In this document: positions 5,239 to 33,030 of the stretch, piece after piece
How the letters are laid out: each line of letters opens with the position of its first letter
Numbering within the stretch: the first letter of the stretch is position 1
Source of the DNA: an uncultured delta proteobacterium
GTDB lineage: Bacteria > Desulfobacterota > Desulfobacteria > Desulfobacterales > UBA2156
Reading direction: 5' to 3'
Length of the DNA: 64,000 bases
Assembly (NCBI GenBank): GCA_963736855.1
Contig: CAVTQK010000021.1
Location: 753,929-817,928, forward strand
Notes under the pieces: model-generated
What the model saw: only the letters and a program-made list of their open reading frames with translations
Databases searched by the model: none
What the model was told of the DNA's origin: nothing
Program-made: the position numbers and the translations under genes

Positions 5239-5259
5239 TTTATACATTGATGAGATAAT

Positions 5260-13884: not shown

Positions 13885-14036
13885 TGGCTTCGTAAAAAGT
13901 CCAATTTCTGCGTTGCGCATCATCCCGTTGCGATTTCGACGTACGATAAGTACGCCTCATCACACGGGATTCGCGATGCCTTGAACTTGAACTTTTTACT
14001 TTGCCATCTGATTTTCGACTTTTTACGAGTTCATCA
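13882..14036. mobile_element. 155-bp MITE, copy 1
   Basis: TIRs TGATGGCTTCGTAAAAAGTC / GACTTTTTACGAGTTCATCA; AAAT on both flanks; inverted near-identical copy at 38199-38353. Confidence 0.85.
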
Positions 14037-14064
14037 AAATTCATGAAGAAAGGATCAGTAAAAA

Positions 14065-14982
14065 ATGTATGCGATGTATAAATGCGTGGAGATTCCCGAA
14101 GCAGGACAACTGGTGGGTACGGGATGGCTTCCGCCTCTTCCGGACCTGAGAGATTACACGGATACGCACCCTGAGATTGCGGAAATGAACAAGAAGTTGC
14201 GATTGCCCAAGGGCAAAGAGTTGAAATCGCTGCCGGCAACCGTCGATCTCAGATCCTGGTGCTCACCTGTAGAAAATCAAAAAAGCCTGGGTTCCTGTAC
14301 GGCACATGCCGCAGCAGGGATTGTCGAGTACTTCCAGCGCAGGGCTTTTAACAAACACCTCGAGGGATCCCGACTTTTCATATACAAAACAACCCGCAAT
14401 CTGATGCAAGTAACCGGGGATGCCGGAGCTTGGTTGAGGAATACCATGGGCGCCTTGACACTTTGCGGTGTCCCGGATGAGAAATACTGGCCATACACGG
14501 ATGCCGAACCGGCCTTCGATAATGAACCTCCGAGCTTCGTTTATGCCATCGCCGACAACTATGAGGCGGTAAAATACTTCTGTCATGACCCTTTAGGAGC
14601 GAACGTCTCGGGAAACACTGTCCTGAACAACGTCAAAAAATATATAGCTGCCGGCGTTCCTTCGATGTTTGGTTTTTGGGGTTTCCCGTCGTTCGATTAT
14701 TGTGACGTGAAAGGCGGAATTCCATACCCATGTCCCGATGAACAAGCGCAGTGGGGACATGCCATCGTTGCGGTCGGCTATGATGACGGAAAAAAGATCA
14801 AGAATACGAAGTGTAACAAGACGACTACAGGGGCTATCCTGATCCGAAATTCGTGGGGTAAGACATGGGGAGACAAGGGGTATGGGTGGTTGCCCTATGA
14901 ATACGTGGTGAACAAGCTGGCTCTCGATTTCTGGTCCCTATTGAGCATGGAATGGGTGGACACGAAGCAATTCGGCTTGTGA
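14065..14982 (+). CDS. Papain-like C1 cysteine peptidase
   Basis: NQ..LGSCTA, GHAIVAVGY, IRNSWG catalytic motifs. Confidence 0.92.
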   Translation: MYAMYKCVEIPEAGQLVGTGWLPPLPDLRDYTDTHPEIAEMNKKLRLPKGKELKSLPATVDLRSWCSPVENQKSLGSCTAHAAAGIVEYFQRRAFNKHLEGSRLFIYKTTRNLMQVTGDAGAWLRNTMGALTLCGVPDEKYWPYTDAEPAFDNEPPSFVYAIADNYEAVKYFCHDPLGANVSGNTVLNNVKKYIAAGVPSMFGFWGFPSFDYCDVKGGIPYPCPDEQAQWGHAIVAVGYDDGKKIKNTKCNKTTTGAILIRNSWGKTWGDKGYGWLPYEYVVNKLALDFWSLLSMEWVDTKQFGL

Positions 14983-14995
14983 AAAAACACCGAAA

Positions 14996-16765
14996 TCACG
15001 ATCTACGACATTTGATCAGGGCCGCTTCCAGGTCGCACTGAAGGCATCGGCTCACCTCTTGCAAAGCCTGGTCATCATCCATGCACAAGTCCACTTCATC
15101 GAAAGAGGTGCGCCTTTCCGATACGGCCAGTCGTCGGGGTTCCTCACGTCTTCGGTCGGCAAATCCAGGGCTCCTTTTTACGGCATCTATCCGGTTTTCT
15201 ATATCCCGGCAATCCGTTCCAGGTGTTTGGCTCCTGAAATCGAATCTGCCGTCTCCGCCCAGGTACCGATCGATGGAAACCGCCGCACGCCTTCCGGCGG
15301 CGACGGCTTCGACCACCGTGCCGGGACCACTGGCTGCATCCCCTCCGGCAAATACGCCGGGAAGCGCTGTGGCTTGGGTTTCGGCATCGATAGAAATAAG
15401 GCCATTTTGAACCGGGATAGATCCTTCTTCCAGGAAGCAAAAATTCCTGCAAAATGCCGTTTCGCTAGCCTGGCCGACAGCTAAAATCACCTGATCCGTT
15501 TCCACTGTTTTTTGGGTCTCATTGAAAAAGGGGCAGAAATTCCCCTGTTCATCGAAGACGGACAGACACCGGACCAGTTCGACTCCGGAAACCCTGCCAT
15601 CGTTTCCCGTGATTCTTGCCGGACCCCAGGAATAAAGCATTTCAACACCCTCTTCCAGGGCCATTTCAATTTCCCAGGGGTTGGCGGGCATCTCTTCTCT
15701 GCTCTCAAGACAGGCCAGTGTCACTTTTTCGGCCCCCAATCGAAGGGCGGTCAGAGCCACGTCGATGGCCACATTCCCGCCTCCAACCACCAGGGTCCGC
15801 TTAGCTACTTTTGGAGGATTCCCTTCCGAAACCAAAACCAGGAAATCGACTCCCCAGGCCACATTTTCCAGATCGATCCCTTCGATGCGGAGCCTCTTGC
15901 TGATCTGGGCCCCTACCGCAAGAAAGACTGCGTCGAATCCTTCCCGCTTTAAATCCTCCACCTGGAAATCCGTCCCCAGTTTCCGGCCCATCCTCAGGTC
16001 AATTCCCATTCTTAAGATCCGGTTTATTTCCTGGTCGATAACCGTCTCCGGAAGTCGGTACCTGGGAATTCCGTATCGGAGCATCCCGCCCGCTTTTTTC
16101 CTAGCTTCGAAGAGTGTTACCCGGTGCCCCTTTTTACGCAAGAAAAAGGCGGCGGTCAGTCCCGCAGGACCGGCGCCGATGATGGCCACCTTTTTGTCGG
16201 TATCCGCACCTGGAGATAAGATTTTAGCAAAGTCACCTCCGGCCTTGTCGGCGGCATACCGCTTGGCCGCGCAAATGGCGATCGGCGCGTTGATCTCCCC
16301 CCGCTTGCAGACGGTTTCGCAGGGGTGTGTGCATACCCGTCCCAGAATCCCCGGGAAAGGAGCCTTTTCCATGATCCGCTCGAAGGCTTCGTCCATCTTA
16401 CCCCGAGCGATGCATCTCAGGTACCCAGGCACATCGATTCCAGCCGGACAGGCGGCTACGCAGGGAGCGCCTTCAGGGATTCTTTCCGCTGGAGAAAACT
16501 CCCTGAGGGCGCGGGTCATATCGATGATTTTGATACCGTTGGGGCAGGCATCTTCGCATCGGCCGCAGACAGCGCAATACCACGGCATGTCCGATGATGC
16601 GATCTCCCGGATCCTGTCGAGTTCCACATAATGAATCATCCGCCGAATATTGAATTCATTGACGCCGGTGATCGGGCAGGCCGAGCTGCATCGGCCGCAC
16701 TGCTCGCAGTAGCGCAGCATTTTGACGTCGTTGAAGCGCTCGCTAAACGATGGCATGGGTTTCAT
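14996..16765 (-). CDS. HdrC-like 2x[4Fe-4S] domain fused to GltD/NfnB-like FAD/NAD(P)H oxidoreductase
   Basis: CEQCGRCSSACP, WYCAVCGRCEDACP, APC..ACP, GRVCTHPCE, GAGPAG, GGGNVA, RCLQC. Confidence 0.85.
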   Translation of the reverse strand: MKPMPSFSERFNDVKMLRYCEQCGRCSSACPITGVNEFNIRRMIHYVELDRIREIASSDMPWYCAVCGRCEDACPNGIKIIDMTRALREFSPAERIPEGAPCVAACPAGIDVPGYLRCIARGKMDEAFERIMEKAPFPGILGRVCTHPCETVCKRGEINAPIAICAAKRYAADKAGGDFAKILSPGADTDKKVAIIGAGPAGLTAAFFLRKKGHRVTLFEARKKAGGMLRYGIPRYRLPETVIDQEINRILRMGIDLRMGRKLGTDFQVEDLKREGFDAVFLAVGAQISKRLRIEGIDLENVAWGVDFLVLVSEGNPPKVAKRTLVVGGGNVAIDVALTALRLGAEKVTLACLESREEMPANPWEIEMALEEGVEMLYSWGPARITGNDGRVSGVELVRCLSVFDEQGNFCPFFNETQKTVETDQVILAVGQASETAFCRNFCFLEEGSIPVQNGLISIDAETQATALPGVFAGGDAASGPGTVVEAVAAGRRAAVSIDRYLGGDGRFDFRSQTPGTDCRDIENRIDAVKRSPGFADRRREEPRRLAVSERRTSFDEVDLCMDDDQALQEVSRCLQCDLEAALIKCRRS

Positions 16766-16786
16766 GGTCCATTTCTGCGGCAGTCG

Positions 16787-18913
16787 CTACTTAAGATGGA
16801 GTTGTTTGACCATATCCTTCATGGTCCTGGCGAACTTGGGGCCGTCGGCCGCGCTGCACCATACATTCCAGAGGCGATCCGGATCGTACCCTGCCTTGGC
16901 CAGCTTCTTTCGCATCCGCCTCACCCGGGATTCCGCCGCATAGTTGCCTGAAATATAGTGACAGGTGGGAAATTCGCATCCGGCCACCAGGACGCCGGCT
17001 GCTCCTTTTTCAAAGGCCCGCAGCATCATTTTCATAGAGACCCGTGCCGAACACATCACCCGGATCAGCCTTGCATGGATCGGGTATTGGAGGCGGCTGA
17101 CGCCGGCCATGTCGACGCCGCCTAAAGCGCACCAGTGGCAGACGAATCCAACGATTTTCTTTTCCGGATCTTCCGAAAGTGCTGCATCGACCTGGGCCAG
17201 GACCTGATCGTCGGTGAAATGGACGATGGTGACGCACTCCTTGGGGCAGTCCGCCGCACAGAGCCCGCACCCCTTGCATAGGGCCTTGATGACGTGGGGA
17301 TTCTTGTCGGCGTCAACGCTGATGGCGCTGTATGGGCATCGTTTGTAGCATAAGCCGCATTGGTTGCAATCGGCAAGATCGATATCCGCAACGATCCCTT
17401 CCGCTTCCACGTATCCCCGTTTCATGGGGATGGAAACCCGCATGGCAGCACCGGCACCGGCCTCGATGCTCTCCTTGAGCATCATGGGCGCCTTGGCGCA
17501 TCCGGCAAGGGCAATGCCGTCAGTGGGAAACTCCAGAGGGGCCAGCTTCACGTGAGATTCCTGGAAAAACCCGTCCGTGTTGGCAGAAACCTTCAACAGC
17601 CCCTTGAGGCGTTCAACGGTTTCATCCCCCTGAAAGGCGGTGGTGAGGACCAGGAGGTCAGCCGGCAGATCCAATTCTTTCCCGATGAGAAGATCAAGGG
17701 GCTTGACGAGGAGGGATCCATCCGCCTGCTGCACGATTTCCGGATAGCGGTTGTCGGGAAATCGGGAAAAGCGGACTCCCATTCGCTTGGCCTGTTCCAG
17801 CATGGACCCTTCTTCCTTGACCATGGAAAGGTCCCGGTAGAGGATATGGATCTGCACATCCGGATTCAGGCGTTTTAATGCCAGGGCATTTTTCACGCTC
17901 ACGTGGCATCCGATTCCGCAGCAACCCCGAGTTTCATTTTTAGACCCGACACACTGGATGATGACCACATTTTTCATCAAGCCTTCCGGACCGAACACTG
18001 AAGCTAAACCCCCATCCGACATTTTCTCTTCGTCCGTTGTATTCGTCAGGGCCGAAAGCTTTCTTTCCAGTTGGAGTTGGGTGATCACCCGTGGATTTTC
18101 CCCATACCCGAAAAGACCTTCGGGCTCGATTTCCCGCATTCCTGTGGCCACCACGATGGTGGAGACATCGAGGCGCTCCCCCGGCGCTTGATTTTTCTCT
18201 CTCAGGGTGACCTTGTAATTTCCGATGTAACCTTCAACGGTATCGATCTTAGCGCCTGTGACGACACGAATACCGGGGTTGGACGTCACACGTTCCTCAA
18301 GCTGTTTTACCAGTTCGAAGGCCTGTGCTTCATGATGATCATGGCAGACCCTGTTCAAATCTTTTAAGATTCCGCCGAGCCTGTCCCGTTTCTCGAAAAG
18401 GAATGCCGAAAACCCCTGTTCGGCAATGTTCAATGCGGCAGTCATGCCGGCTGCCCCGCCGCCGATAATGAGACATTCCTGCTTGACCGGAAGCCGGATC
18501 TCCTCCCCCTCTTCCAGAAGGATGGCCTTGGCCACCCCCATCCGGATGAGGTCCTTTGCCTTCTCCGTGGCTGCCTCCGGTTCCTTCATGTGCACCCAGG
18601 AAACCTGTTCCCGAATGCTGACGAATTCCAGCAAATAGGGGTTCAATCCGGCCTGCTTGACGTTTCTTTTAAAAAGCGATTCATGGGTCCGGGGCGTACA
18701 GGATGCGATGACCACCCGGTTGATGCGGTGCTCTTTGATCAGATCCTGCATCCTGGAAAGATAGTCGACGCTGCAGGACCACCGCCCCTCGTCGGCCAGA
18801 ACCACATGGTCCAGCTCCTTGGCATATTCCACCACTTCCGGGACGTTCACGACGCCGGCGATATTGGAGCCGCAGTCGCAAACAAAGACACCCACCCGGA
18901 TATCGTCATTCAT
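16787..18913 (-). CDS. hdrA: HdrA-like flavoprotein with C-terminal MvhD domain (QmoB-like architecture)
   Basis: VGVFVCDCG, CTPRTHE, IREQVSWVH, IQCVGS, two ferredoxin motifs, FVCHWC..RVMCSARV..GC..CHY. Confidence 0.9.
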   Translation of the reverse strand: MNDDIRVGVFVCDCGSNIAGVVNVPEVVEYAKELDHVVLADEGRWSCSVDYLSRMQDLIKEHRINRVVIASCTPRTHESLFKRNVKQAGLNPYLLEFVSIREQVSWVHMKEPEAATEKAKDLIRMGVAKAILLEEGEEIRLPVKQECLIIGGGAAGMTAALNIAEQGFSAFLFEKRDRLGGILKDLNRVCHDHHEAQAFELVKQLEERVTSNPGIRVVTGAKIDTVEGYIGNYKVTLREKNQAPGERLDVSTIVVATGMREIEPEGLFGYGENPRVITQLQLERKLSALTNTTDEEKMSDGGLASVFGPEGLMKNVVIIQCVGSKNETRGCCGIGCHVSVKNALALKRLNPDVQIHILYRDLSMVKEEGSMLEQAKRMGVRFSRFPDNRYPEIVQQADGSLLVKPLDLLIGKELDLPADLLVLTTAFQGDETVERLKGLLKVSANTDGFFQESHVKLAPLEFPTDGIALAGCAKAPMMLKESIEAGAGAAMRVSIPMKRGYVEAEGIVADIDLADCNQCGLCYKRCPYSAISVDADKNPHVIKALCKGCGLCAADCPKECVTIVHFTDDQVLAQVDAALSEDPEKKIVGFVCHWCALGGVDMAGVSRLQYPIHARLIRVMCSARVSMKMMLRAFEKGAAGVLVAGCEFPTCHYISGNYAAESRVRRMRKKLAKAGYDPDRLWNVWCSAADGPKFARTMKDMVKQLHLK

Positions 18914-18931
18914 GGAGGCACCTCATACAGG

Positions 18932-20284
18932 TCAGGATCTCAAAACCGCCTTCATGCCTGCGGCGCATGCCTGCACTACGGATTCGGCGATGTCGATGGG
19001 CCCGGTGGCCCCTCCGCACAGGTAAATCCCCGGTACAGAAGTCTCCAGGGGAGCTGTCAGCGGGTCTTTTTCCCTGAAATATCCCAGATGATCCAGCTCG
19101 ATGTTCAAAACCTTGGCAATTTTTTCGTTTCTCTCACTGGGAATAATCCCGGTGGAAAGAACGAGCAACTCCACCTCATGGGTTTCGATCTTTCCGGTTT
19201 CCAGATTTTCATACCGGACAATCAGATTCTTCGTTTGAGAATCCTCCCGGACCTGATACGGCCGGCCACGGACATAACGGACGCCGTTGTCGATGGCCTT
19301 TCGATAAAATTCCCAGAAGTTTTTCCCATAGGCTTTCAGGTCGTTGTAAAAAACAACGGCCTCGACGGATGCGTCGTGCTCTTTGGTGATGATGACCTGC
19401 TTTGTAGCAATCATGCAGCAGATCTTGGAACAGTAGGGAACCCCTTTTCCTTCCGCCAGCCCCCGGCCGGCGCATTGAACCCAGGCGATCTTCTTGGCAT
19501 GGCGCCTGTCAGAGGGGCGGATGATCTCTCCGGCGGTGGGACCTCCGGCGTTCATCAGGCGTTCGAACTGCATGCCGGTTATGACGTTGTCGTAAATGCC
19601 GTAGCCAAGCAGGTCGCCGGCAGGCTTGGCGTCGGCAATCCCGGTTGCCACCACGATGCTCTTGACCTCCAACGCGAAGTTCTTGCTGGATTGCCAGAGC
19701 ATGATCGCCTTCTTCCCTTCTTTCTCACAAGCCTTGACGCATAGGGCGATGGGGCACTCCCGGCACTGACTACAGTCCACGGCACAGCCGCCGATGCAGG
19801 CCCCGGCGGCTCGCATCTCTCCAGACCGGCATGCCAGGTCCACGGACACCACGTTGGGGACCGCCTGGGGAAAAGCCATATGGATGAGTTTTCGTTTTCC
19901 GCCGATCTTTCCGTCCATTTCGTCGCGAATGCTCACCGGACATGCTTCCACGCAGGCGCCGCATCCGGTGCATTTTTCTTCGTCCACATATTTGGGCTTC
20001 TTGACCAGCCGGACTTCAAACCTGTTGTTTTTGGCCTTAACCTTTTTGACTTCCGTACTGGTGAGGATCTCGATATTTTCCTGGTTGTCGGCATCGTACA
20101 TCTGAGGCGCCTCGATACAGATGGAACAATCGTTGGTCGGAAAGGTCTTATCCAGGCGCGCCATCATTCCGCCGATACTGGGCGTGTCGTCCACCAGGTA
20201 AACTTTACTGCCGTATTTGGCGGCGTTCAGGGCACAATTGATTCCGGCAATCCCCGCCCCGATGATCAGGATCGCATCGCTCAT
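18932..20284 (-). CDS. hdrA: HdrA-like flavoprotein lacking the N-terminal domain (QmoA-like architecture)
   Basis: GAGIAG, LDKTFPTNDCSIC, FERLMNAGGPT, YCSKICCM. Confidence 0.9.
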   Translation of the reverse strand: MSDAILIIGAGIAGINCALNAAKYGSKVYLVDDTPSIGGMMARLDKTFPTNDCSICIEAPQMYDADNQENIEILTSTEVKKVKAKNNRFEVRLVKKPKYVDEEKCTGCGACVEACPVSIRDEMDGKIGGKRKLIHMAFPQAVPNVVSVDLACRSGEMRAAGACIGGCAVDCSQCRECPIALCVKACEKEGKKAIMLWQSSKNFALEVKSIVVATGIADAKPAGDLLGYGIYDNVITGMQFERLMNAGGPTAGEIIRPSDRRHAKKIAWVQCAGRGLAEGKGVPYCSKICCMIATKQVIITKEHDASVEAVVFYNDLKAYGKNFWEFYRKAIDNGVRYVRGRPYQVREDSQTKNLIVRYENLETGKIETHEVELLVLSTGIIPSERNEKIAKVLNIELDHLGYFREKDPLTAPLETSVPGIYLCGGATGPIDIAESVVQACAAGMKAVLRS

Positions 20285-20302
20285 GACATCACCTTATGAA
20301 TT

Positions 20303-20512
20303 TTAGATTTCCGTGATGATAACGGCCTTAGACTTGCACACCGCCTCGCAGGTGCGGCACCCCAGGCAATTCTGCGGTCTCACGGGGTAGGCCTTGATGG
20401 AAAAATCGAAGACTTCGGCGGGGCAAATCTTGATGCACTCCTCGCAACCGTCACATCGATCGGGATCCACATGGATCAGGTAGACTTCAAAATCCCGGAA
20501 TTGCTTTGCCAT
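20303..20512 (-). CDS. 2x[4Fe-4S] ferredoxin
   Basis: CDGCEECIKICP, CLGCRTCEAVC. Confidence 0.9.
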   Translation of the reverse strand: MAKQFRDFEVYLIHVDPDRCDGCEECIKICPAEVFDFSIKAYPVRPQNCLGCRTCEAVCKSKAVIITEI

Positions 20513-20525
20513 GACGAGGATCGTT

Positions 20526-20948
20526 TTATCTTCCCTCGAGCTCTTTCCACTTGTAGTCGATGAGTTCCAAAAGGACGCCGCTCATCTTCTTGGGATGGAT
20601 GAAGGCAAACTCGCAGTCGCGGAAAGGCCGGGCACCGCCGATGAAGGGGTAATCCTTCCCTTTCAGTTCTTCCATGGCCTTTCGGGTGTTATCCACGTTC
20701 AGGCTGATCAGCATAATCCCTTCACCCCGCTTCTCGATGAACTTGGCCACATCACCATCCGGCGTGGTGGATTCCATGAGCTCGAAGCCGACTTCTCCCA
20801 CCCAGTATCGGGCTACTTTGATCTTTTCGGATTCGTCGATGTACTCGTCGTCCGGTTTCGTTTTCCCCAGGACCGGTTCCCAGATCTTGCGGGCCTGGTC
20901 CAGGTTTTTGACCGCAACACAGATATGGTCGATCTTGTTGGCTTTCAC
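20526..20948 (-). CDS. VOC-family (methylmalonyl-CoA epimerase-like) protein
   Basis: IDHICVAV, ELME, FIHPK..GVLLELI; GTG 20948 has GGGAGG RBS. Confidence 0.85.
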   Translation of the reverse strand: MKANKIDHICVAVKNLDQARKIWEPVLGKTKPDDEYIDESEKIKVARYWVGEVGFELMESTTPDGDVAKFIEKRGEGIMLISLNVDNTRKAMEELKGKDYPFIGGARPFRDCEFAFIHPKKMSGVLLELIDYKWKELEGR

Positions 20949-21063
20949 CGGTTCCTCCCATTGTTTCATAAAAATGTTTTCAATCCTAAAGGGCCGGGGA
21001 GTCGAGTGTCGGAAAACTGCTTCCACTCTATCCCTGGAACTCCTTACCCCTTGAACCCTTTTC

Positions 21064-21270
21064 TTAAAACGTCACCTTGGTAAGGGGTATCGTGATGGCT
21101 TTGTCCGGGCAGACGCACCCGCATTCGTTGCAATCTTCGCATAAGAACTCCGTCACCACCACGCGATCTCCCTGGACCCGGATTGCATGATCCGGGCATA
21201 TCTCCACACACAGCGGTTGGGTAAAACCGCCGCACATGGTGCACTTGTCCAAATCGACTTGGGCTGCCAT
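21064..21270 (-). CDS. Ferredoxin
   Basis: CTMC...PLCVEICP, CEDCNECGCVCP. Confidence 0.88.
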   Translation of the reverse strand: MAAQVDLDKCTMCGGFTQPLCVEICPDHAIRVQGDRVVVTEFLCEDCNECGCVCPDKAITIPLTKVTF

Positions 21271-21281
21271 AACCAGTTCTC

Positions 21282-21812
21282 CTATTTTTCTTTTTTGTAC
21301 AGTCGAATCTGCCACATCCCCTCTCCCCGGGGAATGGCCTTCTGGACTTCGATATCCAGCGAAATATTGAAGAAAACACTCACATCTTCCAGGATGGATC
21401 TGAGCATTCTCTCCCTGCAAAGGGCGACTTCCTGCATGGGGACACCGAACTCCTTAGCCCAGGTGGGCCAGGGATCCCGGGTACAGCGTATGAACACTTC
21501 CGACGGCTTTTCCCCTTTCTCCGCGGTGGCCACACCGCCGTCCACCACCCAGAGATCCGCCAGAGACCGTCCCAGAGTCAGCATGAAGGCTGCTTCCCCT
21601 TTGAGCCAGTTGAGCCGCGGCAGTAACGCTTTCCCGATGTCTTTTCCGAAGATTTCCGCGGCCTTCAGACCCACATCGAGGGGTTTCACGCCGTCCCCGG
21701 CAATTTCCAGCGCCGTATGGCGCCAGCGGTAATAGGTTTTCCCGATTTCACCCTGGGCGGCGCGAAGGCCGCTCAAGAATTTTCCAATCTCTTTTTCCGC
21801 ATCGAATTGCAT
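21282..21812 (-). CDS. Hypothetical protein, V4R/ATC-hydrolase-like fold
   Basis: GGAGG RBS; CTRDPW..C..IPRG pattern. Confidence 0.6.
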   Translation of the reverse strand: MQFDAEKEIGKFLSGLRAAQGEIGKTYYRWRHTALEIAGDGVKPLDVGLKAAEIFGKDIGKALLPRLNWLKGEAAFMLTLGRSLADLWVVDGGVATAEKGEKPSEVFIRCTRDPWPTWAKEFGVPMQEVALCRERMLRSILEDVSVFFNISLDIEVQKAIPRGEGMWQIRLYKKEK

Positions 21813-21825
21813 GGCTGACCTCCTC

Positions 21826-23808
21826 TTATATCCTTATCCCGATCCGGTAACCGTCATGTACCGCACTGGACAGGTTTCGGGGAACCAGCGCATCCCCGAT
21901 GACGAAAAGCTCGATTCCTTCGGCCTGTACGGCTTTCTTAAGGGCTTCGTTTGCCGCACGATCGCTATTCACAATCGTGTCGCATGCTATCGGAATCCGG
22001 TAGCCGTCGTAGGTACGAATGATAATCCCCTCCGGTGTGATGGTTTCGATCTCGCAATCATTGTAGGCTTTGATTCCGTTTTGGCGCAGGTAAATCATGT
22101 AACGCCACTTGAAAGAAGGATTGACGTCGAACCCTGCGGTCTTTTCCTTGCCTACGAGGGTCACCTTCTTTCCCTGCTTGGTCAGATACAGAGCACATCC
22201 GATTCCGGGCTTGCGGTTTCCCCAAATCACCACATTCTCGCCGACCTGAGCCTTCCCGCTCATCACATCCAAAAGATGGACCACGTTCTTTTGGGAACCA
22301 CCCGGCAAATCCGGATAAATCGGTCCGGTGGCCAGCACCACCGTATCAGGCATTACGTCGGAAATCATCTCTTCGGTGACCGCTGTTCCCAGATGAAAGG
22401 TTACACCGGCCAGCTCGCACATCTTTTTCTGGTACGCTGCGCAGGTCCACAATTCATCATCGCCATAGGGAGCTTTCCGGGCCTCGTTGAGGGTACCGCC
22501 GATAGTGTCCCGCTTATCGTAAACGTGAACCTCATGGCCGCGACTGGCCGCCATATAGGCGCATTCAAGGCCGGCCGGCCCGGCGCCCACGATCATGACT
22601 TCCTTTTTATCTTCCGCAGGCTTGGGATTCGTGAATTCCGGGTTCGATTCATGGGCACATATAGGATTTATATAGCAGGTCATGGGTGCATCCCGGAACA
22701 GTCGGGACAGGCAGAGGTTGCAAGCCACGCAGTGCCGGATTTCATCCTCTCTCCCTTCCAGAACCTTTTTGGGCATCAAGGGATCGGCGATCATGGATCG
22801 GCACATCTCCCATATGTCGAGTTCACCGGCGCCGATGGCCTTGTTCGGCAGGTCCGGTTTGAATAGGCGATAAGCCATCTGAACCGGGATTTTAACATGT
22901 TCCTTGGCCCGCTTGGCCAGATGGATCCAGTTCCCCATGGGTATATCGCGACTGATGACCGGTTGAATGGACTCCTGCCAGCCGAGGGTGACGCTGATGT
23001 AGTCCGCTCCGGCCTCTTCGGCAATTTTATAAGTTTCCATGGACTCCTGGGGCGTGTTCCCCCGTACATCGTCAAGGAGTTCTTCGGAGCATAGTCGGAT
23101 TCCCAAAGGAACATCCGGGCCGCAAACCGCCTTGACGCCCTGGATGATCTCCACCACCGCCCGCATCCGACCCCGGATGTCTCCGCCGTATTCGTCGGTG
23201 CGTCGGTTGGTGTAGCTGGAAATGAAGTTGGAGATGAGGTAACCGACGATACCCGAGATCTCCATAATGTCGAATCCGGCCTCGATTCCTCTGCGGGCCG
23301 CATCAATGTGCTGCCGGATCATCTCCTTGATCTCCGCCTTGGTCATCTCCTTCATGGGTCTGAAGATGCGCAAGCGCTGGGGAACCGCCGAGGGTCCGTG
23401 CCCGTGCGGCACATCCACGGCGCCTACCCTGCCGCAGTCCATCAATTGAAAACCAACCACGGCTTTCTGCTCGTGAACGGCATCGGCAATACGCTTCAGT
23501 CCCGGAACAAACTTGTCGTCCCAGCAGGCCGCCTGTCCCACATAACCCTGACCTTGCCGCTTTGCATCCATGTAAACGCCCTGCATGAAGCATAGGCCTC
23601 CCACCACGCCCTTGGCGCGCTCACGCATATAGGCCACCCCCGAATCGGTTACGAACCCATCATGCGCATTCAGATTTTCTTCCGTTGCGGCATATTTGAT
23701 CCGGTTGGGCACGATGAGATTGCCGATCCGGATCGGTTTGAACAGGTGGGGGTAGGTTTTTGCCCCCGGGTACGACGAATAGTCCCACTCAAACAGTTGC
23801 TTCGCCAT
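21826..23808 (-). CDS. Old yellow enzyme FMN/[4Fe-4S]/FAD reductase resembling 2-naphthoyl-CoA reductase (class III aryl-CoA reductase clade)
   Basis: NRIKYAATE, GQGYVG, EISGIVGY in place of the usual HxxH, CVACNLC..C, GAGPAG; NCR similarity is from recollection. Confidence 0.75.
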   Translation of the reverse strand: MAKQLFEWDYSSYPGAKTYPHLFKPIRIGNLIVPNRIKYAATEENLNAHDGFVTDSGVAYMRERAKGVVGGLCFMQGVYMDAKRQGQGYVGQAACWDDKFVPGLKRIADAVHEQKAVVGFQLMDCGRVGAVDVPHGHGPSAVPQRLRIFRPMKEMTKAEIKEMIRQHIDAARRGIEAGFDIMEISGIVGYLISNFISSYTNRRTDEYGGDIRGRMRAVVEIIQGVKAVCGPDVPLGIRLCSEELLDDVRGNTPQESMETYKIAEEAGADYISVTLGWQESIQPVISRDIPMGNWIHLAKRAKEHVKIPVQMAYRLFKPDLPNKAIGAGELDIWEMCRSMIADPLMPKKVLEGREDEIRHCVACNLCLSRLFRDAPMTCYINPICAHESNPEFTNPKPAEDKKEVMIVGAGPAGLECAYMAASRGHEVHVYDKRDTIGGTLNEARKAPYGDDELWTCAAYQKKMCELAGVTFHLGTAVTEEMISDVMPDTVVLATGPIYPDLPGGSQKNVVHLLDVMSGKAQVGENVVIWGNRKPGIGCALYLTKQGKKVTLVGKEKTAGFDVNPSFKWRYMIYLRQNGIKAYNDCEIETITPEGIIIRTYDGYRIPIACDTIVNSDRAANEALKKAVQAEGIELFVIGDALVPRNLSSAVHDGYRIGIRI

Positions 23809-23891
23809 CGGTCAGCCCTCCTACTTTGATAATTCCTGGAATCCATTGTTTCACTGAAACGTTATCGAAAAGCCCAAGTCTTGGTTAATAT

Positions 23892-24575
23892 CTATGCTTC
23901 GTTACCATGCTTTATGCCTGCGGGCGTCTGGGTTGCCTCGGCTAATAGAGTCCTCACCGGTAAAGCCGGATCGTTTTCCCGGGTTGTAAACGCACTCACC
24001 ATCAGGTCAAACGTCTCTTCAAGATTTTCAAAGAGGCTGTATTTCCGATCCCTCAACAGCCATAAGGTGATGATATGTTCCATGGTGCCAATAAAAATGT
24101 TGCGGGCAATGCGCGGATTGATATGCGACCGCATCTCGCCGGTGCGCTTGCCCTCCTCGAAAATCTCAAGCAGGTAAGCATACAGCACCTTCACGTTGGA
24201 ATAGACCTCGGTCTGCATAAAATTGGCATTGGTCTTTAGAAAAAGGTACACAATCTTGGCATCCAGCGGCGACTCCTCAATTCGGCGGAAGTACCACCAG
24301 AGATACTTCCTCAGTTTGTTAACGGCTCCCTTGATTCCGAAAAGCTGCCGTTCGAGGTCTTCAATAAGTTCGGATACCCACATATCCGGTATGGTTAAAA
24401 GCAGGTCTTCTTTGCCCTGGAAATACTCATAAAGCGCCGCCTCGGATAATTCCGCCTGTTTGGAGATATCCGCAATGGTGGTTTTGAGATACCCCTGGTC
24501 GGCAAATAGCGTTTTTGCGGCATCGATGATTCGATTTTTGGTGGATTCTTTTTTATTTTTCGGGGATTTTGCCAT
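23892..24575 (-). CDS. TetR/AcrR family regulator
   Basis: AKTLFADQGY..TTIADI..ALYEYF..KEDLL. Confidence 0.92.
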   Translation of the reverse strand: MAKSPKNKKESTKNRIIDAAKTLFADQGYLKTTIADISKQAELSEAALYEYFQGKEDLLLTIPDMWVSELIEDLERQLFGIKGAVNKLRKYLWWYFRRIEESPLDAKIVYLFLKTNANFMQTEVYSNVKVLYAYLLEIFEEGKRTGEMRSHINPRIARNIFIGTMEHIITLWLLRDRKYSLFENLEETFDLMVSAFTTRENDPALPVRTLLAEATQTPAGIKHGNEA

Positions 24576-25002
24576 AATCCTAATATAGTTTTATAAAAAG
24601 ATTGTATTAAAGTTTAACTCAATTCAAGATATTGTAAATATTATAATTTATTGTCCTAATACCGTTAGAATATTTTTATAATTGTCCCTAATGAATTGGT
24701 TATAGCCCATGAGGTCACCGGTCAACAACGGTAGTTATTTGGATTTTCCGGATAAAATATTGTATTTCATTTTGCTATTTTACTTTAAATAACTAATTGT
24801 TTTTATTTGATATATATATTTTATTAACCCATGTTTTTTAAATTTTCGAATAACATTAGGTCTTTTTATTGTCAAGAAAAAACCGTCGGCAGTCCGATCC
24901 TTCGGAGGAATTGATTGTTGTGTTCAACGATCCTTTTTGATATCCCAACGCAAGCGCGCGACCCGTTGTTATCCAATTATCAACGAAGGAAAAGCATCAA
25001 CG

Positions 25003-25596
25003 ATGAAGACCATCTTGGCAATTTATGGAAGTCCCCGCCGAAAGGGAAACACTTCCTCCCTCCTGAAGCGGGCCGTGGAAGGCGCGCTTCAGGCAGGCGC
25101 TCAGGTGGAAGAAGTGGTCCTTCGGGATCTTAAAATATCACCCTGCCTGGAAATTTACGGCTGCAGAAAAACCGGACGGTGCGCCATCCAGGATGACTTT
25201 CAGGGGCTTTATGACCGTCTGCTGGCATGCGACGGCCTCATGCTGGCAAGCCCCATTTTCTTTTACACCGTCAGCGCCCATACCAAAATTCTCATGGACC
25301 GTTGTCAATCCTTATGGGTCAAGAAATACTGGGTCGACAAGAACCCCTTTTCACCTAAAATCGTGAAGCGAAAAGGTCTGTTTATCGCTGTGGGGGCTAC
25401 ACGCGGAAAAAAGCTTTTTGATGGAGCACTTCTGACGGTCCGTTACTTTTTCGACACCTTCGACGCCGAACTGTGGCAATCGCTTTTGTATCGGGGACTC
25501 GATTTTGAAGGTGATATTCTCAAACATCCCGAATACCTTCAAGAGGCCTATTCTTCCGGACAGGCACTAGCCCAAGCTGAGGCGTGCATCATTTGA
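25003..25596 (+). CDS. Flavodoxin-like iron-sulfur flavoprotein / FMN reductase
   Basis: GSPRRKGNT, PCL...C....C..DD, SPIFF. Confidence 0.88.
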   Translation: MKTILAIYGSPRRKGNTSSLLKRAVEGALQAGAQVEEVVLRDLKISPCLEIYGCRKTGRCAIQDDFQGLYDRLLACDGLMLASPIFFYTVSAHTKILMDRCQSLWVKKYWVDKNPFSPKIVKRKGLFIAVGATRGKKLFDGALLTVRYFFDTFDAELWQSLLYRGLDFEGDILKHPEYLQEAYSSGQALAQAEACII

Positions 25597-25741
25597 GTAC
25601 TGATTAATAACCAGACTATTTTCTCATAGCAAGAATTTTTTCCAGTGAAATCATATGCATAAGGACAAGAACCGGTTTTGCCGAAAGCCAAAGCAAAACC
25701 TTTTGTTTTAAACTTCCATTCCGACCAGAAAATATGCACTT

Positions 25742-26986
25742 ATGAAGATTAACAAAGCCGCCTTCGTTGTCGTGATCTTATCGGCTCTTAGTTTACTTGG
25801 ATGGACGATCTACCAAAAACGTGATCGTTTCCGCTCGAGTTTGAATAAAGAACTCCGAAAAGCGCCGGTAACCGTAGAGATCAGCCCTGTCCGAAAGGCC
25901 GACATCCGTGATCGGATTTCATTGACAGGAACCTTACAAGCTTGGTCATCCTGTATCCTTGCCCCGAAAATCGCGGGAAGGCTGGAAAAGATTTGGGTCA
26001 ATATCGGGGACACGGTTAAAGTCGGACAATTGGTGGCGGTCCTGGATGACGAAGAATATCGTCAGCAGGTCAACCAGGCAAGGGCGGAGATGGAAGTGGC
26101 CCAGGCCAATCTCCTGGAGTGGGAAAGCGCTTTGGAGAATGCCAAACGGGAATTTGCGCGAACGGTCGAGCTGAGAAAAAAAAAGATCGCTTCAGAATCC
26201 CAACTCGATGCTTCCGAATCCGAATATAAAACCCAACAAGCCAAGATCAAGGTGGCCCTCGCTCAGGTCGCGCAAAAAAAAGCGGCTTTAAAGGCTGCAG
26301 AGGCACGACTTTCTTATGCTCGGATTCAAATCGGCGAAAATATTGCTTCAAGTTGCCAGGTCGTTGGGGAACGGTTTGTCGACGAAGGATCCATGCTGGC
26401 TCCCAATACACCCATTGTTTCCATTCTGGACATCGGTAAACTCATTGCCGTTGTCCATGTCATCGAACGGGATTACCATAAAGTTCGTACCGGGATGGAG
26501 GCGATAATCACCACGGATGCCCTTCGCGAAATGTCCTTTGCCGGAAAAGTGGCCCGTATTGCCCCGTTGTTGAAGGAACAATCCAGAGAGGCCAGAATTG
26601 AAATCGAAGTCCCGAACGACCGGCTACTCCTCAAACCCGGTATGTTTATCACCGCTGAAATCCTATTCGCCATACATGAAAACGCCACGGTGATACCCAA
26701 TGTCGCTCTGATGAAAAGAGAAGGTCTGCAAGGGGTATTCATTGCCGATCTGAAAGAAAAAAAAGCGCATTTCGTTCCTGTAAAAGTCGGCATCACCGAT
26801 GAAAGCCTTATAGAGATCTTGCAGCCTCCTCTTGCCGGATCCATTGTGACGCTGGGTCAGCATCTGCTGGAAGACGGGGACTCCATAATCGTTCATGAAA
26901 AAGAACCGGTCCAAGACATCATTCAGAAAGGAAATTCCGAAAACATCAGGGAAAATCCACTACCTTCCGGAAAACAACCATCTTGA
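25742..26986 (+). CDS. RND efflux periplasmic adaptor
   Basis: GDTVKVGQ lipoyl motif, coiled coil, LKPGMF. Confidence 0.92.
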   Translation: MKINKAAFVVVILSALSLLGWTIYQKRDRFRSSLNKELRKAPVTVEISPVRKADIRDRISLTGTLQAWSSCILAPKIAGRLEKIWVNIGDTVKVGQLVAVLDDEEYRQQVNQARAEMEVAQANLLEWESALENAKREFARTVELRKKKIASESQLDASESEYKTQQAKIKVALAQVAQKKAALKAAEARLSYARIQIGENIASSCQVVGERFVDEGSMLAPNTPIVSILDIGKLIAVVHVIERDYHKVRTGMEAIITTDALREMSFAGKVARIAPLLKEQSREARIEIEVPNDRLLLKPGMFITAEILFAIHENATVIPNVALMKREGLQGVFIADLKEKKAHFVPVKVGITDESLIEILQPPLAGSIVTLGQHLLEDGDSIIVHEKEPVQDIIQKGNSENIRENPLPSGKQPS

Positions 26987-29900
26987 ATATCGCCCAATTT
27001 TTCATCCGCCGCCCGATCATGACGATCATGTTTTCTTTGATCGTCATTATTTTAGGGAGCGTTTCATTCTATCGCCTAACCATTGATCTCATGCCGGATA
27101 TCACCTATCCGACCCTAAGCATCACTACCGAATACGAAAATTCCGGTCCCGAAGAGGTTGAAGAATTGATCACGCGCCCCGTGGAAGAAGCCATGAGCGC
27201 TGTTCCCGGGGTGGAAGAGGTGACCTCGGTATCCGCAGAGGGAAGAAGCAACGTTCGAGTCACCTTTACCTGGGGAACGGATCTGGACGCAGCGGCAAAT
27301 GATGTTCGGGATCGGTTGGATCGAATCATCCCTGTTCTGCCGGAAGATGCGGAACGGCCTAGTTTAAGAAAATTCGATCTTGCCTCATTCCCGATCCTCA
27401 TTCTCGGTGTTTCCAGTCGGTTGGATCCGATTCAAGTCCGAAGAATCATCGACGACCAGATTAAAAACCGCATCGAACGGATCCCAGGGGTGGCATCTCT
27501 GGACATCCGAGGCGGTCTGAATCGAGAAATCCACATCAACCTGGATGCGGAAAAGGTTAAGGCATTGGGACTCCCTGTGGATCGATTGCTTACCCTTCTC
27601 CAGGAGGAGAACGTCACGATTCCGGCCGGAACGATCGAACAAGGGAACTTTGATATCACGATCCGAACTCCCGGCATTTACAACAACCTGGATGAGTTGC
27701 GGAATACCGTGATCGCTCTTCGGGAAAACGTTCCCATCCAATTGAAAGAAATCGCTACGGTTGAAGATGCTTGGGAAAAAATCACCCGGATTGTCCGAGT
27801 AAACGGTAAACCGGGCGTACGCCTTGCCGTGAACAAGCAATCCGGGAAAAACACGGTAGAGGTGGCTTCAAGTGTCCTTGAGGAAATCACTCGTATTAAT
27901 CAAGATGTTCCTCAACTGCAGATCGTTCCCATCATCGACACCTCTGATTATATCAAGCGTTCCATCACCAATGTCGGCACATCGGCTTTATATGGAGGTG
28001 CGCTTGCCGTATTGGTCCTGCTCTTTTTCTTGAGAAATATCCCCAGCACCGCCATTATCGCAACCACCATTCCCATTTCTGTAGTGGCCACGTTTGGCCT
28101 GATGTATTTTAATGGTTTTACACTGAATTTGATGACGCTGGGCGGGCTCGCACTCGGCGTCGGGATGCTGGTCGATAATGCCATTGTTGTGCTGGAGAAC
28201 ATTTTTCGGCTTCGAGAATCAGGCCAGGATCCGGAATCGGCCGCTATAAACGGAAGCCATGAAGTGGCGGCAGCCGTGATTGCCAGTACGTTAACCACAC
28301 TGGTCGTATTCCTTCCCTTGATCTTTGTTCGTGGGATGTCCGGAATCATGTTCAAGCAGTTGTCCTATGTGGTGAGTTTTTCTCTTGCCTGCTCATTGGC
28401 CGTGGCACTCACCCTCGTCCCGATGCTCTCGTCAAGGGTCCGCGCCCCGGTTATTGACTATTCCAATGGCCGAATCTCCATAAAAAGCCGGATTTTCCAT
28501 ATCACCGGACAATGGTTTGCCGGGATGGAAACCGGCTATCAGAAGGTGTTGCGATATGCATTGGACCATCGATCGTTGATTTTAACGGCAACTTCGGTAT
28601 TGCTGGCTGCTTGTCTCCTTCTGATACCCTTAATCGGCGTCGAATTGATGCCGGCTGTTGATGAGAGCGAGGTTCGGATCTATGCGGAAATGGCTGTCGG
28701 AACGCGTATCGATGTGGTGCACCAGGCGCTTCAAAAAATCGAAGCCATCGTAGAACAGGAAGTGCCTGAAATCCAAAATTCCGTTTCGTTCATCGGTGGG
28801 TCCTCCTGGCGCGCCCGTGGATCCAATACCGGCGAGATGCGAATCGCCCTGCTACCGGTTAAAATGCGAACTCGATCCAGCGAAGAGATTGCCGCTGCAC
28901 TTCGGAAAAAGCTTGGCACCATACCCGGTGCTAAGATCCGGACCCGGGCAGGACAAGGTCTTTTCATTCTCAGGCTCAGCGCCGGGGAGGGAGATCAGAT
29001 TCAATTGGAACTCCGCGGCCATGAGCCAGAAAAGGCGGATATGATAGCCCACATCATTGAAAACATTATCCGCCAGATTCCGGGAATCACCGACACCCAA
29101 ATCAGCAGGGAGATTGGAACTCCGGAAGAGCTCGTCATCATTAACCGTCAAAAGGCCGCGAGCATGAAATTGACGGTATCGAAAATTGCTAATATGCTTC
29201 AAACCATGCTCTCCGGAACGTCTGCGGGAAATTTTCGCGAAGAAGGGAAAGAATATCCGATTCGAGTGAAGTTAAAAGGCGCAGAACAGAAGAGTATCCA
29301 GGAAATTTTGAACCTTCCCATCAACAACTCGGACGGAAACCTTGTTGTGCTTGGAAACGTGGTTGAACTCAAAGATAGAAGCGGACCGATACTCATCGAA
29401 CGTAAAGATCAGGAACGTGTGGTTTACATAACGGCAAACGTCAGCGGCCGGGATATGGGCTCCATTCTTGATGACATCCGCAACGCGATATCCTCCGTTC
29501 CATTACCCAAAGGATTCAGCTTCCATTTTGGAGGTGATTACGAGGAACAGCAGAAATCTTTTCGCGAATTGTTGCTAAGCTTTATTCTGGCCCTGATTCT
29601 GGTATACATGGTGATGGCATGCCTATATGAATCCATCCGTTATCCCTTTGTCGTAATGTTTTCAGTTCCACTGGCCAGTATCGGTGTTATTCTGATGCTT
29701 TTTCTAACCGATACCACATTCAACGTACAGTCCTATATCGGCTGCATCATGCTGGGCGGTATCGTGGTCAACAACGCAATTTTACTCGTGGATCACACCA
29801 ACTTGCTTATACGAAGAGACAGGCTACCTCTCAGAGAAGCCATAGAGGAGGCGGGCAAGAGACGGCTGCGGCCTATTTTAATGACCGCTTTGACGACGAT

Positions 29901-30069
29901 TTTAGCCATGATACCCCTCGCCTTAGGCATCGGTGAGGGGGGAGAAGCCCAAGCGCCAATGGCCAGAGCCGTCATCGGAGGGCTGTTTAGCTCGACTCTG
30001 ATCACCCTGGTAGTGGTTCCCACCATTTATACGCTTTTTGAAAAAGATTCTTCGAAAAAGGCTGCATGA
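26983..30069 (+). CDS. RND efflux permease (AcrB family)
   Basis: [30 protein letters not shown]. Confidence 0.95.
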
Positions 30070-30119
30070 TAATCGTTTTTTCTATATTTGTTGCAGGAAG
30101 GGGATAAAATCCTGATGCC

Positions 30120-33000: not shown

Positions 33001-33030
33001 CGCTTTTGAAGATTGTTGCGTTTTTTAGCG

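Follow-up and report, generated by a model that had tools for sequence, protein, structure and literature searches.

How does a flavoenzyme of the 2-naphthoyl-CoA reductase (NCR) type, the prototype of the class III aryl-CoA reductases, come by electrons of very low potential? The question is raised by an operon found in a stretch of 64,000 nucleotides (hereafter the window; contig CAVTQK010000021.1, positions 753,929 to 817,928) from an uncultured delta proteobacterium of the Desulfobacterales, in which a three-domain member of the family of old yellow enzymes (OYE) is encoded together with two ferredoxins and a set of HdrA-related proteins (minus strand, 14996–24575). The natural donor of class III enzymes is, as an earlier note on this DNA had it, not established; the available excerpts of PMC6502838, PMC12093976, PMC13101529 and PMC13365417 presume a ferredoxin. 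The feature itself is real and strongly conserved. The most fitting reading appears to be a hybrid in which class III catalysis is joined to a bifurcating electron supply of the class II benzoyl-CoA reductase (BCR) type, an idea which the same note had put forward and which finds support in the likeness to NCR, in a layout resembling BamE/BamF and in the synteny; the direction of electron flow that we favour is unlike the one suggested there. [quoted passage not shown] A full-text literature search, which did not cover supplements and may have missed an earlier mention, found no description of the OYE-Hdr gene combination, and the available text of the preprint on the class II enzyme (10.64898/2026.04.10.717634) mentions neither OYE nor class III.

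Conservation and spread of the gene cluster

The nine genes are co-oriented on the minus strand and tightly spaced, at the positions reported earlier, and encode, in the direction of transcription, a TetR-type regulator, the OYE, a 176-aa protein, ferredoxin A, a protein of the VOC superfamily, ferredoxin B, a short HdrA, an HdrA-MvhD fusion and an HdrC-GltD fusion, with gaps of 83, 13, 11, 37–94, 13, 18, 18 and 21 bp between successive genes. Gene families were assigned by Pfam and NCBIfam profile searches, and matches below a family cut-off are flagged as such throughout.

A scan of one genome per species yielded 138 stretches related to the OYE, i.e. at least 138 species genomes possess a close relative of it, and the best 80 (75–97% identical) were kept. 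The carriers among these 80 are nearly all metagenome-assembled genomes labelled Desulfobacterales, Desulfatiglandales or Syntrophaceae; one is the "Delta 1" symbiont of Olavius. Gene order was traced by tblastn with the nine proteins of the window, counting only loci whose contig reached far enough. The same order and strand were found through the 176-aa gene at 76 of 76 loci, through ferredoxin A at 71 of 71, through the short HdrA at 50 of 50 and through HdrA-MvhD at 44 of 44. HdrC-GltD was in place at 34 of 39 loci, three of the remaining five ending at the locus edge and the other two being L049 and L052, and a TetR gene lay directly upstream on the same strand at 53 of the 69 loci with enough upstream sequence. 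Such an operon arrangement is beyond chance.

Variants of the arrangement were found as well. At one locus (L052:11222–12570) a separate HdrC (158 aa) and a CCG-domain HdrB (291 aa) occupy the slot of HdrC-GltD, which at another (L046) has probably been replaced likewise by HdrC and HdrB. At some loci (9 of 40 by clustering) a class I/II pyridoxal phosphate-dependent aminotransferase (e.g. L011:14072–15307 and L006:8643–9824; NCBIfam PRK06836, 576 bits) is encoded between the VOC and ferredoxin B genes; this insertion separates the OYE part of the operon from its Hdr part and hints that the substrate may derive from an amino acid. Ferredoxin B stays beside the short HdrA where the aminotransferase intervenes, and thus moves with the Hdr genes. 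Downstream of the cluster a FadB-like gene is present at about 9 of 40 loci; no further widely conserved neighbour gene was found around the cluster loci.

More distantly related OYEs (75 loci, at most 41% identity, eight of them from the sister clade) were retrieved with a generic FAD-motif pattern, N47, NaphS2, TRIP_1 and Geobacter not being among the matches listed; none of these loci contains the 176-aa gene, the ferredoxins, the VOC gene or HdrA in the flanks examined. The synteny of hdrA genes with NCR homologs, to which the earlier note had tied its proposal, is strict within the clade of the window OYE (44 of 44 loci) and absent from the other OYE loci (0 of 75), i.e. the association with Hdr is confined to this clade. 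Of 401 genomes sampled evenly across the phylum, 7 possess the 176-aa gene; among the 13 that belong to the same order, none does. Within the operon (window 14001–24000) the G+C content is 0.52–0.57, as compared with 0.42–0.44 in both flanks. This step and the patchy occurrence of the 176-aa gene suggest that the cluster is a self-contained unit that has spread horizontally.

Relationship of the OYE to 2-naphthoyl-CoA reductase

The OYE (21826–23808, minus strand, 660 aa), the presumed NCR-like catalytic subunit, matches PF00724 Oxidored_FMN (194 bits) and PF07992 Pyr_redox_2 (63 bits) and is composed of an FMN-binding TIM barrel, a linker with a four-cysteine [4Fe-4S] site, an FAD domain and a degenerate second Rossmann domain. 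This is the three-domain organization of FadH/NCR-type OYEs: Cys360, Cys363, Cys366 and Cys378 correspond to Cys367, Cys370, Cys374 and Cys386 of NCR, and the FAD motif GAGPAG aligns with GAGPSG. The best solved relative is NCR itself (6qkg: E = 4.6e-135, 454.8 bits, residues 18–660 against 13–670), followed among solved structures by E. coli FadH with 281.9 bits. The EISGIVGY motif, which the earlier note had singled out, is found in the OYE as EISGIVGYLI and aligns with EVCAIVGYLI of NCR and EVMGSEGYLI of FadH; the likeness to NCR claimed on that occasion holds in the bit scores and in the NCR-like grouping of the trees.

Trees were inferred with FastTree (150 rows) and IQ-TREE (32 rows), with E. 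coli FadH as the outgroup and with library representatives clustered at 50% identity (P0121, P0124, P0125, P0127 and P0129); proven NCR (N47), NaphS2, DHNCR, AprB-E and DCO are not among the rows, and P0124, which scores 726 bits against 6qkg and is 42% identical to the window OYE, stands in for NCR. The OYE falls into a 50% cluster of its own (P0121, 77% identity), the next representatives being 37–42% identical. The clade of the window OYE has a support of 100, its sister is (P0125,(P0127,P0129)) with supports of 99 and 98 in FastTree and IQ-TREE, respectively, and P0124 is sister to both together with a support of 99 in either tree. The phylogenetic check proposed in the earlier note thus places the OYE in a separate clade within the NCR-like group and not with FadH. 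The bit scores and the tree placement rule it out as a FadH orthologue. P0127 and P0129 were considered as the cluster of NCR itself and ruled out (396 and 426 bits to NCR).

Active-site residues were mapped through the 6qkg alignment onto those named in the available text of Willistein et al. 2019 (PMC6502838). On the FMN and substrate side Tyr197, Ile194, Val195, Tyr82, Gly81, Arg245 and Glu341 of NCR are retained, as are Tyr320, Thr280, Gly282, Phe379 and the four cluster cysteines, and the His pair is absent as in NCR, with the IVGY motif in its place. According to the same text, Tyr197 is the proton donor of NCR and Glu341 is an NCR-specific counter-charge to Arg245, absent in FadH, which together with the missing His pair lowers the FMN potential. 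The proton-relay residues His123, Arg155 and Tyr156 of NCR are altered, and on the FAD side Met626 is replaced by Arg. Among 79 orthologs the motifs WE.CR, YAATE and GNRKPG are present in 79, 78 and 79, respectively; the first bears on the retained Tyr, Arg and Glu equivalents, the second contains the Glu that stands in place of Val38, in NCR the hydrophobic residue at N5, and the last is the second Rossmann motif, which reads GCGGIG in FadH and GGNEIS in NCR.

The genome from which the window derives (G000) also encodes a split OYE of the FadH/NCR type (C3:14724–16617, minus strand), in which the FMN and FAD domains are the products of adjacent genes; it is 29–33% identical to the OYE of the operon.

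The HdrA module and its likeness to BamE/BamF

The short HdrA (18932–20284, minus strand, 450 aa) aligns only with residues 145–562 of HdrA in 5odc and 9sfi, i.e. it comprises the TrxR-like FAD domain and the inserted ferredoxin domain and nothing else. Its Cys53-x-x-Cys56 and the motif CSKICCMIATK with Lys295, aligned to CSxxCCMxxxK of HdrA, are conserved in 55 of 55 orthologs. The protein therefore combines a TrxR-like FAD domain, a CxxC and a Lys beside the flavin N5, the features of a bifurcating HdrA, and is the candidate carrier of the bifurcating flavin; Lys295 is probably the equivalent of Lys409 of methanogen HdrA. Compared with the latter, the inserted ferredoxin domain contains an insertion of about 26 residues (residues 152–186) with seven Cys within 163–186, and this Cys-rich stretch might bind an extra or altered cluster.

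The HdrA-MvhD fusion (16787–18913, minus strand, 708 aa; FlpD/MvhD domain 145 bits) aligns with HdrA residues 3–238 and 320–648 and with MvhD residues 5–125 of 5odc, which leaves out the inserted ferredoxin domain. It consists of the N-terminal domain, an FAD domain without the insert, the C-terminal 2x[4Fe-4S] domain and the [2Fe-2S] MvhD domain, and the CxxC after the FAD motif is found in 0 of 48 orthologs. All the domains of an HdrA module (N-terminal cluster, insert, C-terminal ferredoxin and MvhD) are thus present and split over two proteins, the insert being confined to the short HdrA and the N- and C-terminal domains and MvhD to the fusion. The last gene, HdrC-GltD (14996–16765, minus strand, 589 aa), encodes an HdrC-like dicluster domain (TIGR03290 HdrC, 54 bits over residues 18–90, below the cut-off of 160) followed by Fer4_20 and Pyr_redox_2 with two [4Fe-4S] clusters in the GltD part (PRK12771, 487 bits); its best PDB matches are 9bov, 9n5u (NfnA), 8oh5 and 4ylf (NfnB). 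The exit formed by HdrC and the non-cubane CCG protein HdrB is missing from the operon of the window, in which neither Pfam nor NCBIfam finds a CCG domain.

In the available text of the cryo-EM study of class II BCR (10.64898/2026.04.10.717634), BamE is described as a fused HdrA dimer of which only the N-terminal TrxR1 carries a bifurcating FAD (Lys280, Cys59-Cys62); the C-terminal ferredoxin-like domain together with BamF takes up the electrons, the inserted ferredoxin domain leads to the low-potential output BamC/BamB, and cluster E4 leads to the HdrBC-like BamD as the high-potential output. The layout and the asymmetry of the short HdrA and HdrA-MvhD match this fused dimer plus BamF, which bears out the comparison made in the earlier note.

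A bamBCDEF-like cluster is present elsewhere in the same genome (contig C17; L182:4457–12276), in the order AFOR gene, 177-aa gene, HdrD-like Fer4+CCG gene, fused double HdrA (at least 946 aa) and MvhD-Fer4 gene. BamB was identified via PDB 4z3w, NCBIfam having no BamB model; the gene lies in three frames (4457–4837, 4824–5918 and 5863–6468), the middle piece scoring 652 bits to 4z3w, and the breaks reflect either two assembly indels, with short homopolymers nearby, or a pseudogene. The double HdrA and MvhD-Fer4 look N-terminally cut, possibly by selenocysteine codons. Tandem pairs of a short HdrA and an HdrA(-MvhD) occur on contigs C6, C8, C9, C12, C13, C15, C17 and C20, some of them with GltD-like partners (C8:93096–103028 and C6:137647–142331), and the genome, which is unusually rich in such modular Hdr units, has at least seven GltD/NfnB-like paralogs. 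Judged from these comparisons, the operon pair is one member of a modular family and not a recent copy of bamE.

Ferredoxins and other small proteins

Ferredoxin A (21064–21270, minus strand, 68 aa, 2x[4Fe-4S], Fer4 families) is acidic (pI 4.4) and has the cluster motifs CxxCx7CxxxCP ... CxxCxxCxxxCP, the first motif being extended. The start at the ATG at 21270 is backed by 75 orthologs (the mechanical open reading frame spans 21064–21420), and the mean column identity over 25 sequences is 87%. It is similar to the ferredoxin domain at the C-terminus of HdrA (positions 561–625 of NF040770), and the same domain (positions 567–626) is matched by ferredoxin B (20303–20512, minus strand, 69 aa, 2x[4Fe-4S], Fer4 families). 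Between the two lies the gene of the VOC-superfamily protein (20526–21026, minus strand), which is similar to methylmalonyl-CoA epimerase (PF13669, 49 bits; TIGR03081, 83 bits, below the cut-off of 115); its true start is probably the ATG at 20969, as orthologs span just about 0.83–0.87 of the open reading frame.

The 176-aa protein (21282–21812, minus strand), which always adjoins the OYE, has no match in Pfam (E <= 0.01) or NCBIfam. Its AlphaFold2 (AF2) model is of high confidence (pLDDT 92.9), and a Foldseek search with this model identified Bet3/TRAPPC3 as the top hits (TM-score 0.57–0.61), with the phenol-sensor domains of PoxR/MopR and H-NOX at 0.4–0.53. The PoxR/MopR domains (TM-score 0.43–0.53) we take to be V4R domains; the label "V4R-like" given to the protein earlier would apply at the level of the fold and does not extend to the sequence family, Pfam returning no V4R match. 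The Bet3, PoxR/MopR and H-NOX folds hold hydrophobic ligands, and the 176-aa protein may act as an adaptor or as a subunit that handles the substrate. Identification as an ATC hydrolase was rejected: it would rest on language-model likeness to ATC_hydrolase/DUF6125 clusters, with no Pfam match. The window does encode a protein of the family of these language-model neighbours (PF14196 ATC_hydrolase; 57303–57809, minus strand).

Association with the benzoyl-CoA pathway

Two genes of the lower benzoyl-CoA pathway are located in the window 12 kb from the operon and outside it: bamA, encoding 6-oxocyclohex-1-ene-1-carbonyl-CoA hydrolase (35613–36755, minus strand; TIGR03200, 565 bits, cut-off 464), and bamQ, encoding 6-hydroxycyclohex-1-ene-1-carbonyl-CoA dehydrogenase (36813–37919, minus strand; TIGR03201, 474 bits, cut-off 339). 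A plus-strand open reading frame longer than bamA (35499–36788) has no family match and is probably its shadow.

The association extends to other genomes. In the phylum sample a bamA match (E <= 1e-130) is present in 110 of 401 genomes, and it is found in six of the seven genomes that have the 176-aa gene versus 104 of the other 394 (Fisher p = 0.002, which exaggerates the significance, related genomes not being independent). Among the seven, G013 has a bamA just below the family cut-off and G378 has no bamA match. Twenty further cluster-bearing genomes, of which one (G419) appears to be identical to a member of the phylum sample (G216), have bamA above the cut-off in 19 cases, the exception being G412, and in at least three of the twenty bamA lies on the same contig as the cluster, 3–16 kb away. 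Two complete chromosomes with both the cluster and bamA (G404 and G410) contain no BamB-like gene at E <= 1e-60 and no class I BCR subunit (bcr-type subunit B, BzdO) above the cut-offs, the best scores being 191 and 110 bits.

Proposed electron flow and its alternatives

We tentatively propose, at somewhat less than an even chance, that the operon is one functional unit in which an NCR-type reductase is served by an HdrA bifurcation module, with a ferredoxin as the electron donor and NAD(P)+ as an acceptor. We infer complex formation, the direction of electron flow and the nature of the substrate from gene content, homology, synteny and the co-occurrence with bamA. The first block (OYE, 176-aa protein, ferredoxin A and VOC protein) would form the catalytic part, in which the OYE passes a hydride from its FMN, at low potential, to a hydrophobic acyl-CoA that is probably cyclic or aromatic; an acidic 2[4Fe-4S] ferredoxin of its own, a small protein of ligand-binding fold and an epimerase- or isomerase-like VOC protein would accompany it. 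The second block (ferredoxin B, short HdrA, HdrA-MvhD and HdrC-GltD) would form a flavin-based electron-bifurcation module. Reduced ferredoxin would deliver its electrons to HdrA-MvhD by way of the MvhD and C-terminal ferredoxin domains, from where they would reach the bifurcating FAD in the short HdrA; the high-potential electron would travel through HdrC to the GltD flavin and reduce NAD(P)+, and the low-potential electron would leave through the inserted ferredoxin domain to ferredoxins B and A and on to the FAD, the [4Fe-4S] cluster and finally the FMN of the OYE. The reduced CoA ester would then enter a lower pathway of the benzoyl-CoA type (BamR/Q/A).

Three wirings of the partners NAD(P)(H), OYE substrate and ferredoxin are thermodynamically possible. 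We favour the one described because in HdrABC and class II BCR the high-potential electron exits through HdrC-X, because HdrC and HdrB, which mark such an exit, stand in the slot of HdrC-GltD at variant loci (L052), and because the OYE appears to retain the traits by which NCR lowers its FMN potential. If NAD(P)+ is put at about -320 to -380 mV and ferredoxin at about -500 mV, arithmetic from textbook potentials gives some -620 to -680 mV for the lowest couples that this wiring could drive.

Several observations weigh against this proposal. On the FMN side Val38, His284, Asn247, Phe375 and Val378 of NCR are replaced in the OYE by Glu, Gln, Cys, Leu and Leu, and on the FAD side Glu446, Asn540, Glu541, Ile542, Gln545 and Lys655 are replaced by Thr, Arg, Lys, Pro, Gly and Asn. 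Of the residues that make the FAD environment of NCR acidic (Glu446, Glu541 and Asp649), Asp649 alone is retained, and with acidic or neutral FAD-side residues replaced the low-potential FAD that has been argued for NCR is not evidently preserved. The alignment of Trp459, which in the available text of PMC6502838 blocks the NADPH site of NCR, is ambiguous, a Trp after GDDEL being present in only 35 of 79 orthologs. The Hdr module is a generic one: about eight paralogous tandem pairs of HdrA genes are present in the genome, and the operon pair is only about 40% identical to the nearest of them. One locus (L049, 15379–17424) lacks an HdrC partner and continues directly from HdrA-MvhD to a FadB-like gene, and another (L113, with an OYE 56% identical) retains the OYE, the 176-aa gene and ferredoxin A only. 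A BamB-like gene is found in 13 of the 15 cluster-bearing genomes tested, so that the system would mostly add to class II BCR rather than replace it. Finally, the direction of flow is read from homology of position alone.

Since most carriers possess BamB, the substrate of the OYE is more likely an analogue of benzoyl-CoA, or a different CoA ester (cyclic or aryl) that is channelled to BamR/Q/A, than benzoyl-CoA itself; the FadR/YsiA-like TetR, the VOC protein similar to methylmalonyl-CoA epimerase and the downstream FadB-like gene likewise point to a CoA ester. A bolder version, which we regard as quite unlikely, is a fourth way of dearomatization that needs neither tungsten nor ATP, in which the NCR-type flavin, driven by HdrA with ferredoxin as donor and NAD(P)+ as the high-potential sink, reduces benzoyl-CoA or a substituted form of it that is not accepted by class II BCR. 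In G404 and G410, which lack a BamB-like gene and class I BCR, the OYE system could be the only ring-reducing enzyme.

Of the alternatives the one that fares best, though we still consider it unlikely, is an enoyl- or dienoyl-CoA reductase that conserves energy in the manner of Bcd-Etf or caffeyl-CoA reductase, in which NAD(P)H would be the donor at GltD, HdrA would bifurcate, the CoA ester (e.g. a cyclic dienoyl-CoA) would be the high-potential acceptor and the ferredoxins the low-potential one, and which could run in reverse in oxidation. Such an enzyme agrees with the NAD(P)H binding that is normal for GltD/NfnB-like proteins, with the reduction of activated C=C bonds at high potential by most relatives of OYE and FadH, with FAD surroundings less acidic than those of NCR, and with the FadB-like and beta-oxidation genes nearby. 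It is difficult to reconcile with HdrC-X as the high-potential exit of HdrABC and class II BCR and with HdrC and HdrB in this slot at variant loci, as a dithiol would be unable to act as a mid-potential donor for ferredoxin reduction; moreover, the FMN site retains the NCR-specific Glu341 and has no His pair.

The same slot bears on the linear chain envisaged in the earlier note, in which electrons pass from NAD(P)H through GltD, the HdrA flavins and the ferredoxins to the OYE and Hdr is a dedicated NAD(P)H:ferredoxin reductase. Every component of this chain is encoded in the operon, and the available text of PMC12016498 reports that dihydro-2-naphthoyl-CoA reductase (DHNCR) accepts NADH; nevertheless we find it improbable. 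It would run uphill for couples below about -380 mV, and so for a low-potential substrate, unless a second exergonic reaction were coupled to it, and none is encoded; no high-potential acceptor was named for it, the bifurcating HdrA pair would be superfluous, and the HdrC+HdrB variant would be left unexplained. As HdrC-GltD occupies the position of HdrC+HdrB and of BamD, NAD(P)+ is likelier to be an acceptor than NAD(P)H, as had been assumed, the donor.

Slightly less probable still, the two blocks could be co-regulated and physically separate, Hdr-GltD being a general enzyme for balancing NAD(P)H and ferredoxin, and free ferredoxin the sole link to the OYE. The roughly eight similar HdrA pairs in other contexts of the genome, the L113 locus with its OYE trio and no Hdr genes, and the aminotransferase that parts the two blocks in a subset of loci would all be expected in this case; the synteny at 44 of 44 loci across orders, the gaps of 18–21 bp between genes and the two small ferredoxins, both similar to the C-terminal domain of HdrA and kept at fixed places, would not. 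Least probable of all is an oxidative (aromatizing or dehydrogenating) system, in which the OYE oxidizes a reduced cyclic CoA ester like 1,5-dienoyl-CoA oxidase and Hdr distributes electrons of very low potential between ferredoxin and NAD(P)+: reversibility would be expected of the module as of other bifurcating systems, and NCR is readily reduced by its product dihydro-2-naphthoyl-CoA in an exergonic reverse reaction (available text of PMC6502838), but ferredoxin would need no bifurcation to be reduced by a couple near -500 to -620 mV, and there is no evident pathway need for aromatization beside bamA/bamQ.

As the genes stand, this NCR-like clade is firmly tied, at the level of the genome, to a pair of ferredoxins and to a bifurcation module like BamE/F, and the eight-protein set offers a concrete handle on how very-low-potential electrons are made for flavin-based reduction of rings or dienes. 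If the bifurcating supply of an NCR-type reductase is confirmed, HdrA machines would have a new output (a flavoenzyme) and a new exit (NAD(P)+ via an HdrC-GltD fusion). The operon also draws attention to a widespread, unassigned step linked to the benzoyl-CoA pathway in Desulfobacterota of sediments and aquifers.

Regulator and neighbouring genes

The regulator (23892–24575, minus strand) is composed of PF00440 TetR_N (58.5 bits) and PF08359 TetR_C_4 (57.9 bits), i.e. it has a YsiA/FadR-like ligand domain of the acyl-CoA type; its best NCBIfam match is the Bacillus-type FadR (112 bits, below the cut-off of 200). A scan of the operon for promoters and terminators gave matches at the level of shuffled sequence (8 versus 8.6 and 16 versus 14.2) and does not constitute evidence; in the same scan promoter-like hexamers lie just 5' of the TetR gene and there is no strong internal terminator. 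A search of the gap between the TetR and OYE genes for inverted repeats found none.

Divergent from TetR (24937–33714) are encoded an FMN reductase, an RND efflux system (MFP, AcrB and OEP; 25742–31739), a second, single-domain OYE of 373 aa (31879–33000) and a WrbA-type NAD(P)H:quinone oxidoreductase (33103–33714). Beyond bamQ, the plus strand encodes a short-chain dehydrogenase/reductase, an SCP-x-type thiolase, an enoyl-CoA hydratase (147 bits with the dienoyl-CoA hydratase model, below the cut-off of 292) and a FadB-like protein (38312–43729), followed by a FadL/TodX porin (44698–45987).

Comparison with known systems

E. coli FadH (1ps9) shares with the OYE its domain architecture and a CoA-ester substrate, and differs in that, at 281.9 bits, it lies outside the NCR-like clade as the outgroup and has an intact NADPH motif (GCGGIG), His26 and no equivalent of Glu341. 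NCR (N47, 6qkg) is similar over its full length in the FMN/[4Fe-4S]/FAD architecture, in IVGY in place of the His pair, in the degenerate GxGxxG, and in Tyr197, Arg245, Glu341 and the four cluster cysteines, and a ferredoxin is the expected donor in both cases. In contrast to NCR, the window OYE belongs to a separate clade with less than 50% identity, has a basic FAD environment, Glu for Val38 and Leu for Phe375 and Val378, and is encoded with an HdrA module, a link we did not find in the available text of the literature on NCR or Apr reductases. The apr cluster of Desulfatiglans TRIP_1 resembles the operon in the small ferredoxin AprA beside the OYE-type AprB-E, where it is the proposed low-potential donor (available text of PMC13101529). 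As far as that description goes, the apr cluster contains no Hdr module and has several OYE paralogs together with carboxylase and ligase genes, whereas the window operon has a single OYE and no activation genes. The "Magic" cluster of ORM2 (available text of PMC13101534) is different again, being a GlcDEF-like system.

HdrA units with a GltD-like NAD(P)H module and MvhD are known from sulfate reducers through HdrL (an HdrA/GltD fusion) and the multi-gene HdrA loci of Desulfobacterium autotrophicum HRM2 (available text of PMC2702500). There GltD is fused to HdrA, and the modules are tied to Dsr, Fdh or others; in the window GltD is fused to an HdrC-like domain and the module is tied to an OYE. 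The GltD part of HdrC-GltD is closest to NfnB-type proteins and in this respect resembles NfnAB. The class II enzyme BamBCDEFGHI of Geobacter metallireducens, as described in the available text, shares with the operon two HdrA units and an MvhD-type adaptor, an HdrC-type high-potential exit and a low-potential exit to a reductase of CoA esters. The operon has neither the tungsten enzyme BamB/BamC (there is no AFOR-family gene) nor BamGHI, its HdrA units are separate genes with MvhD fused to the second, and its catalytic partner is a flavoenzyme; and where class II BCR leads from the CCG-domain protein BamD to an electron-transferring flavoprotein, the exit slot of the operon is occupied by an NAD(P)-binding GltD/NfnB-like flavoprotein.

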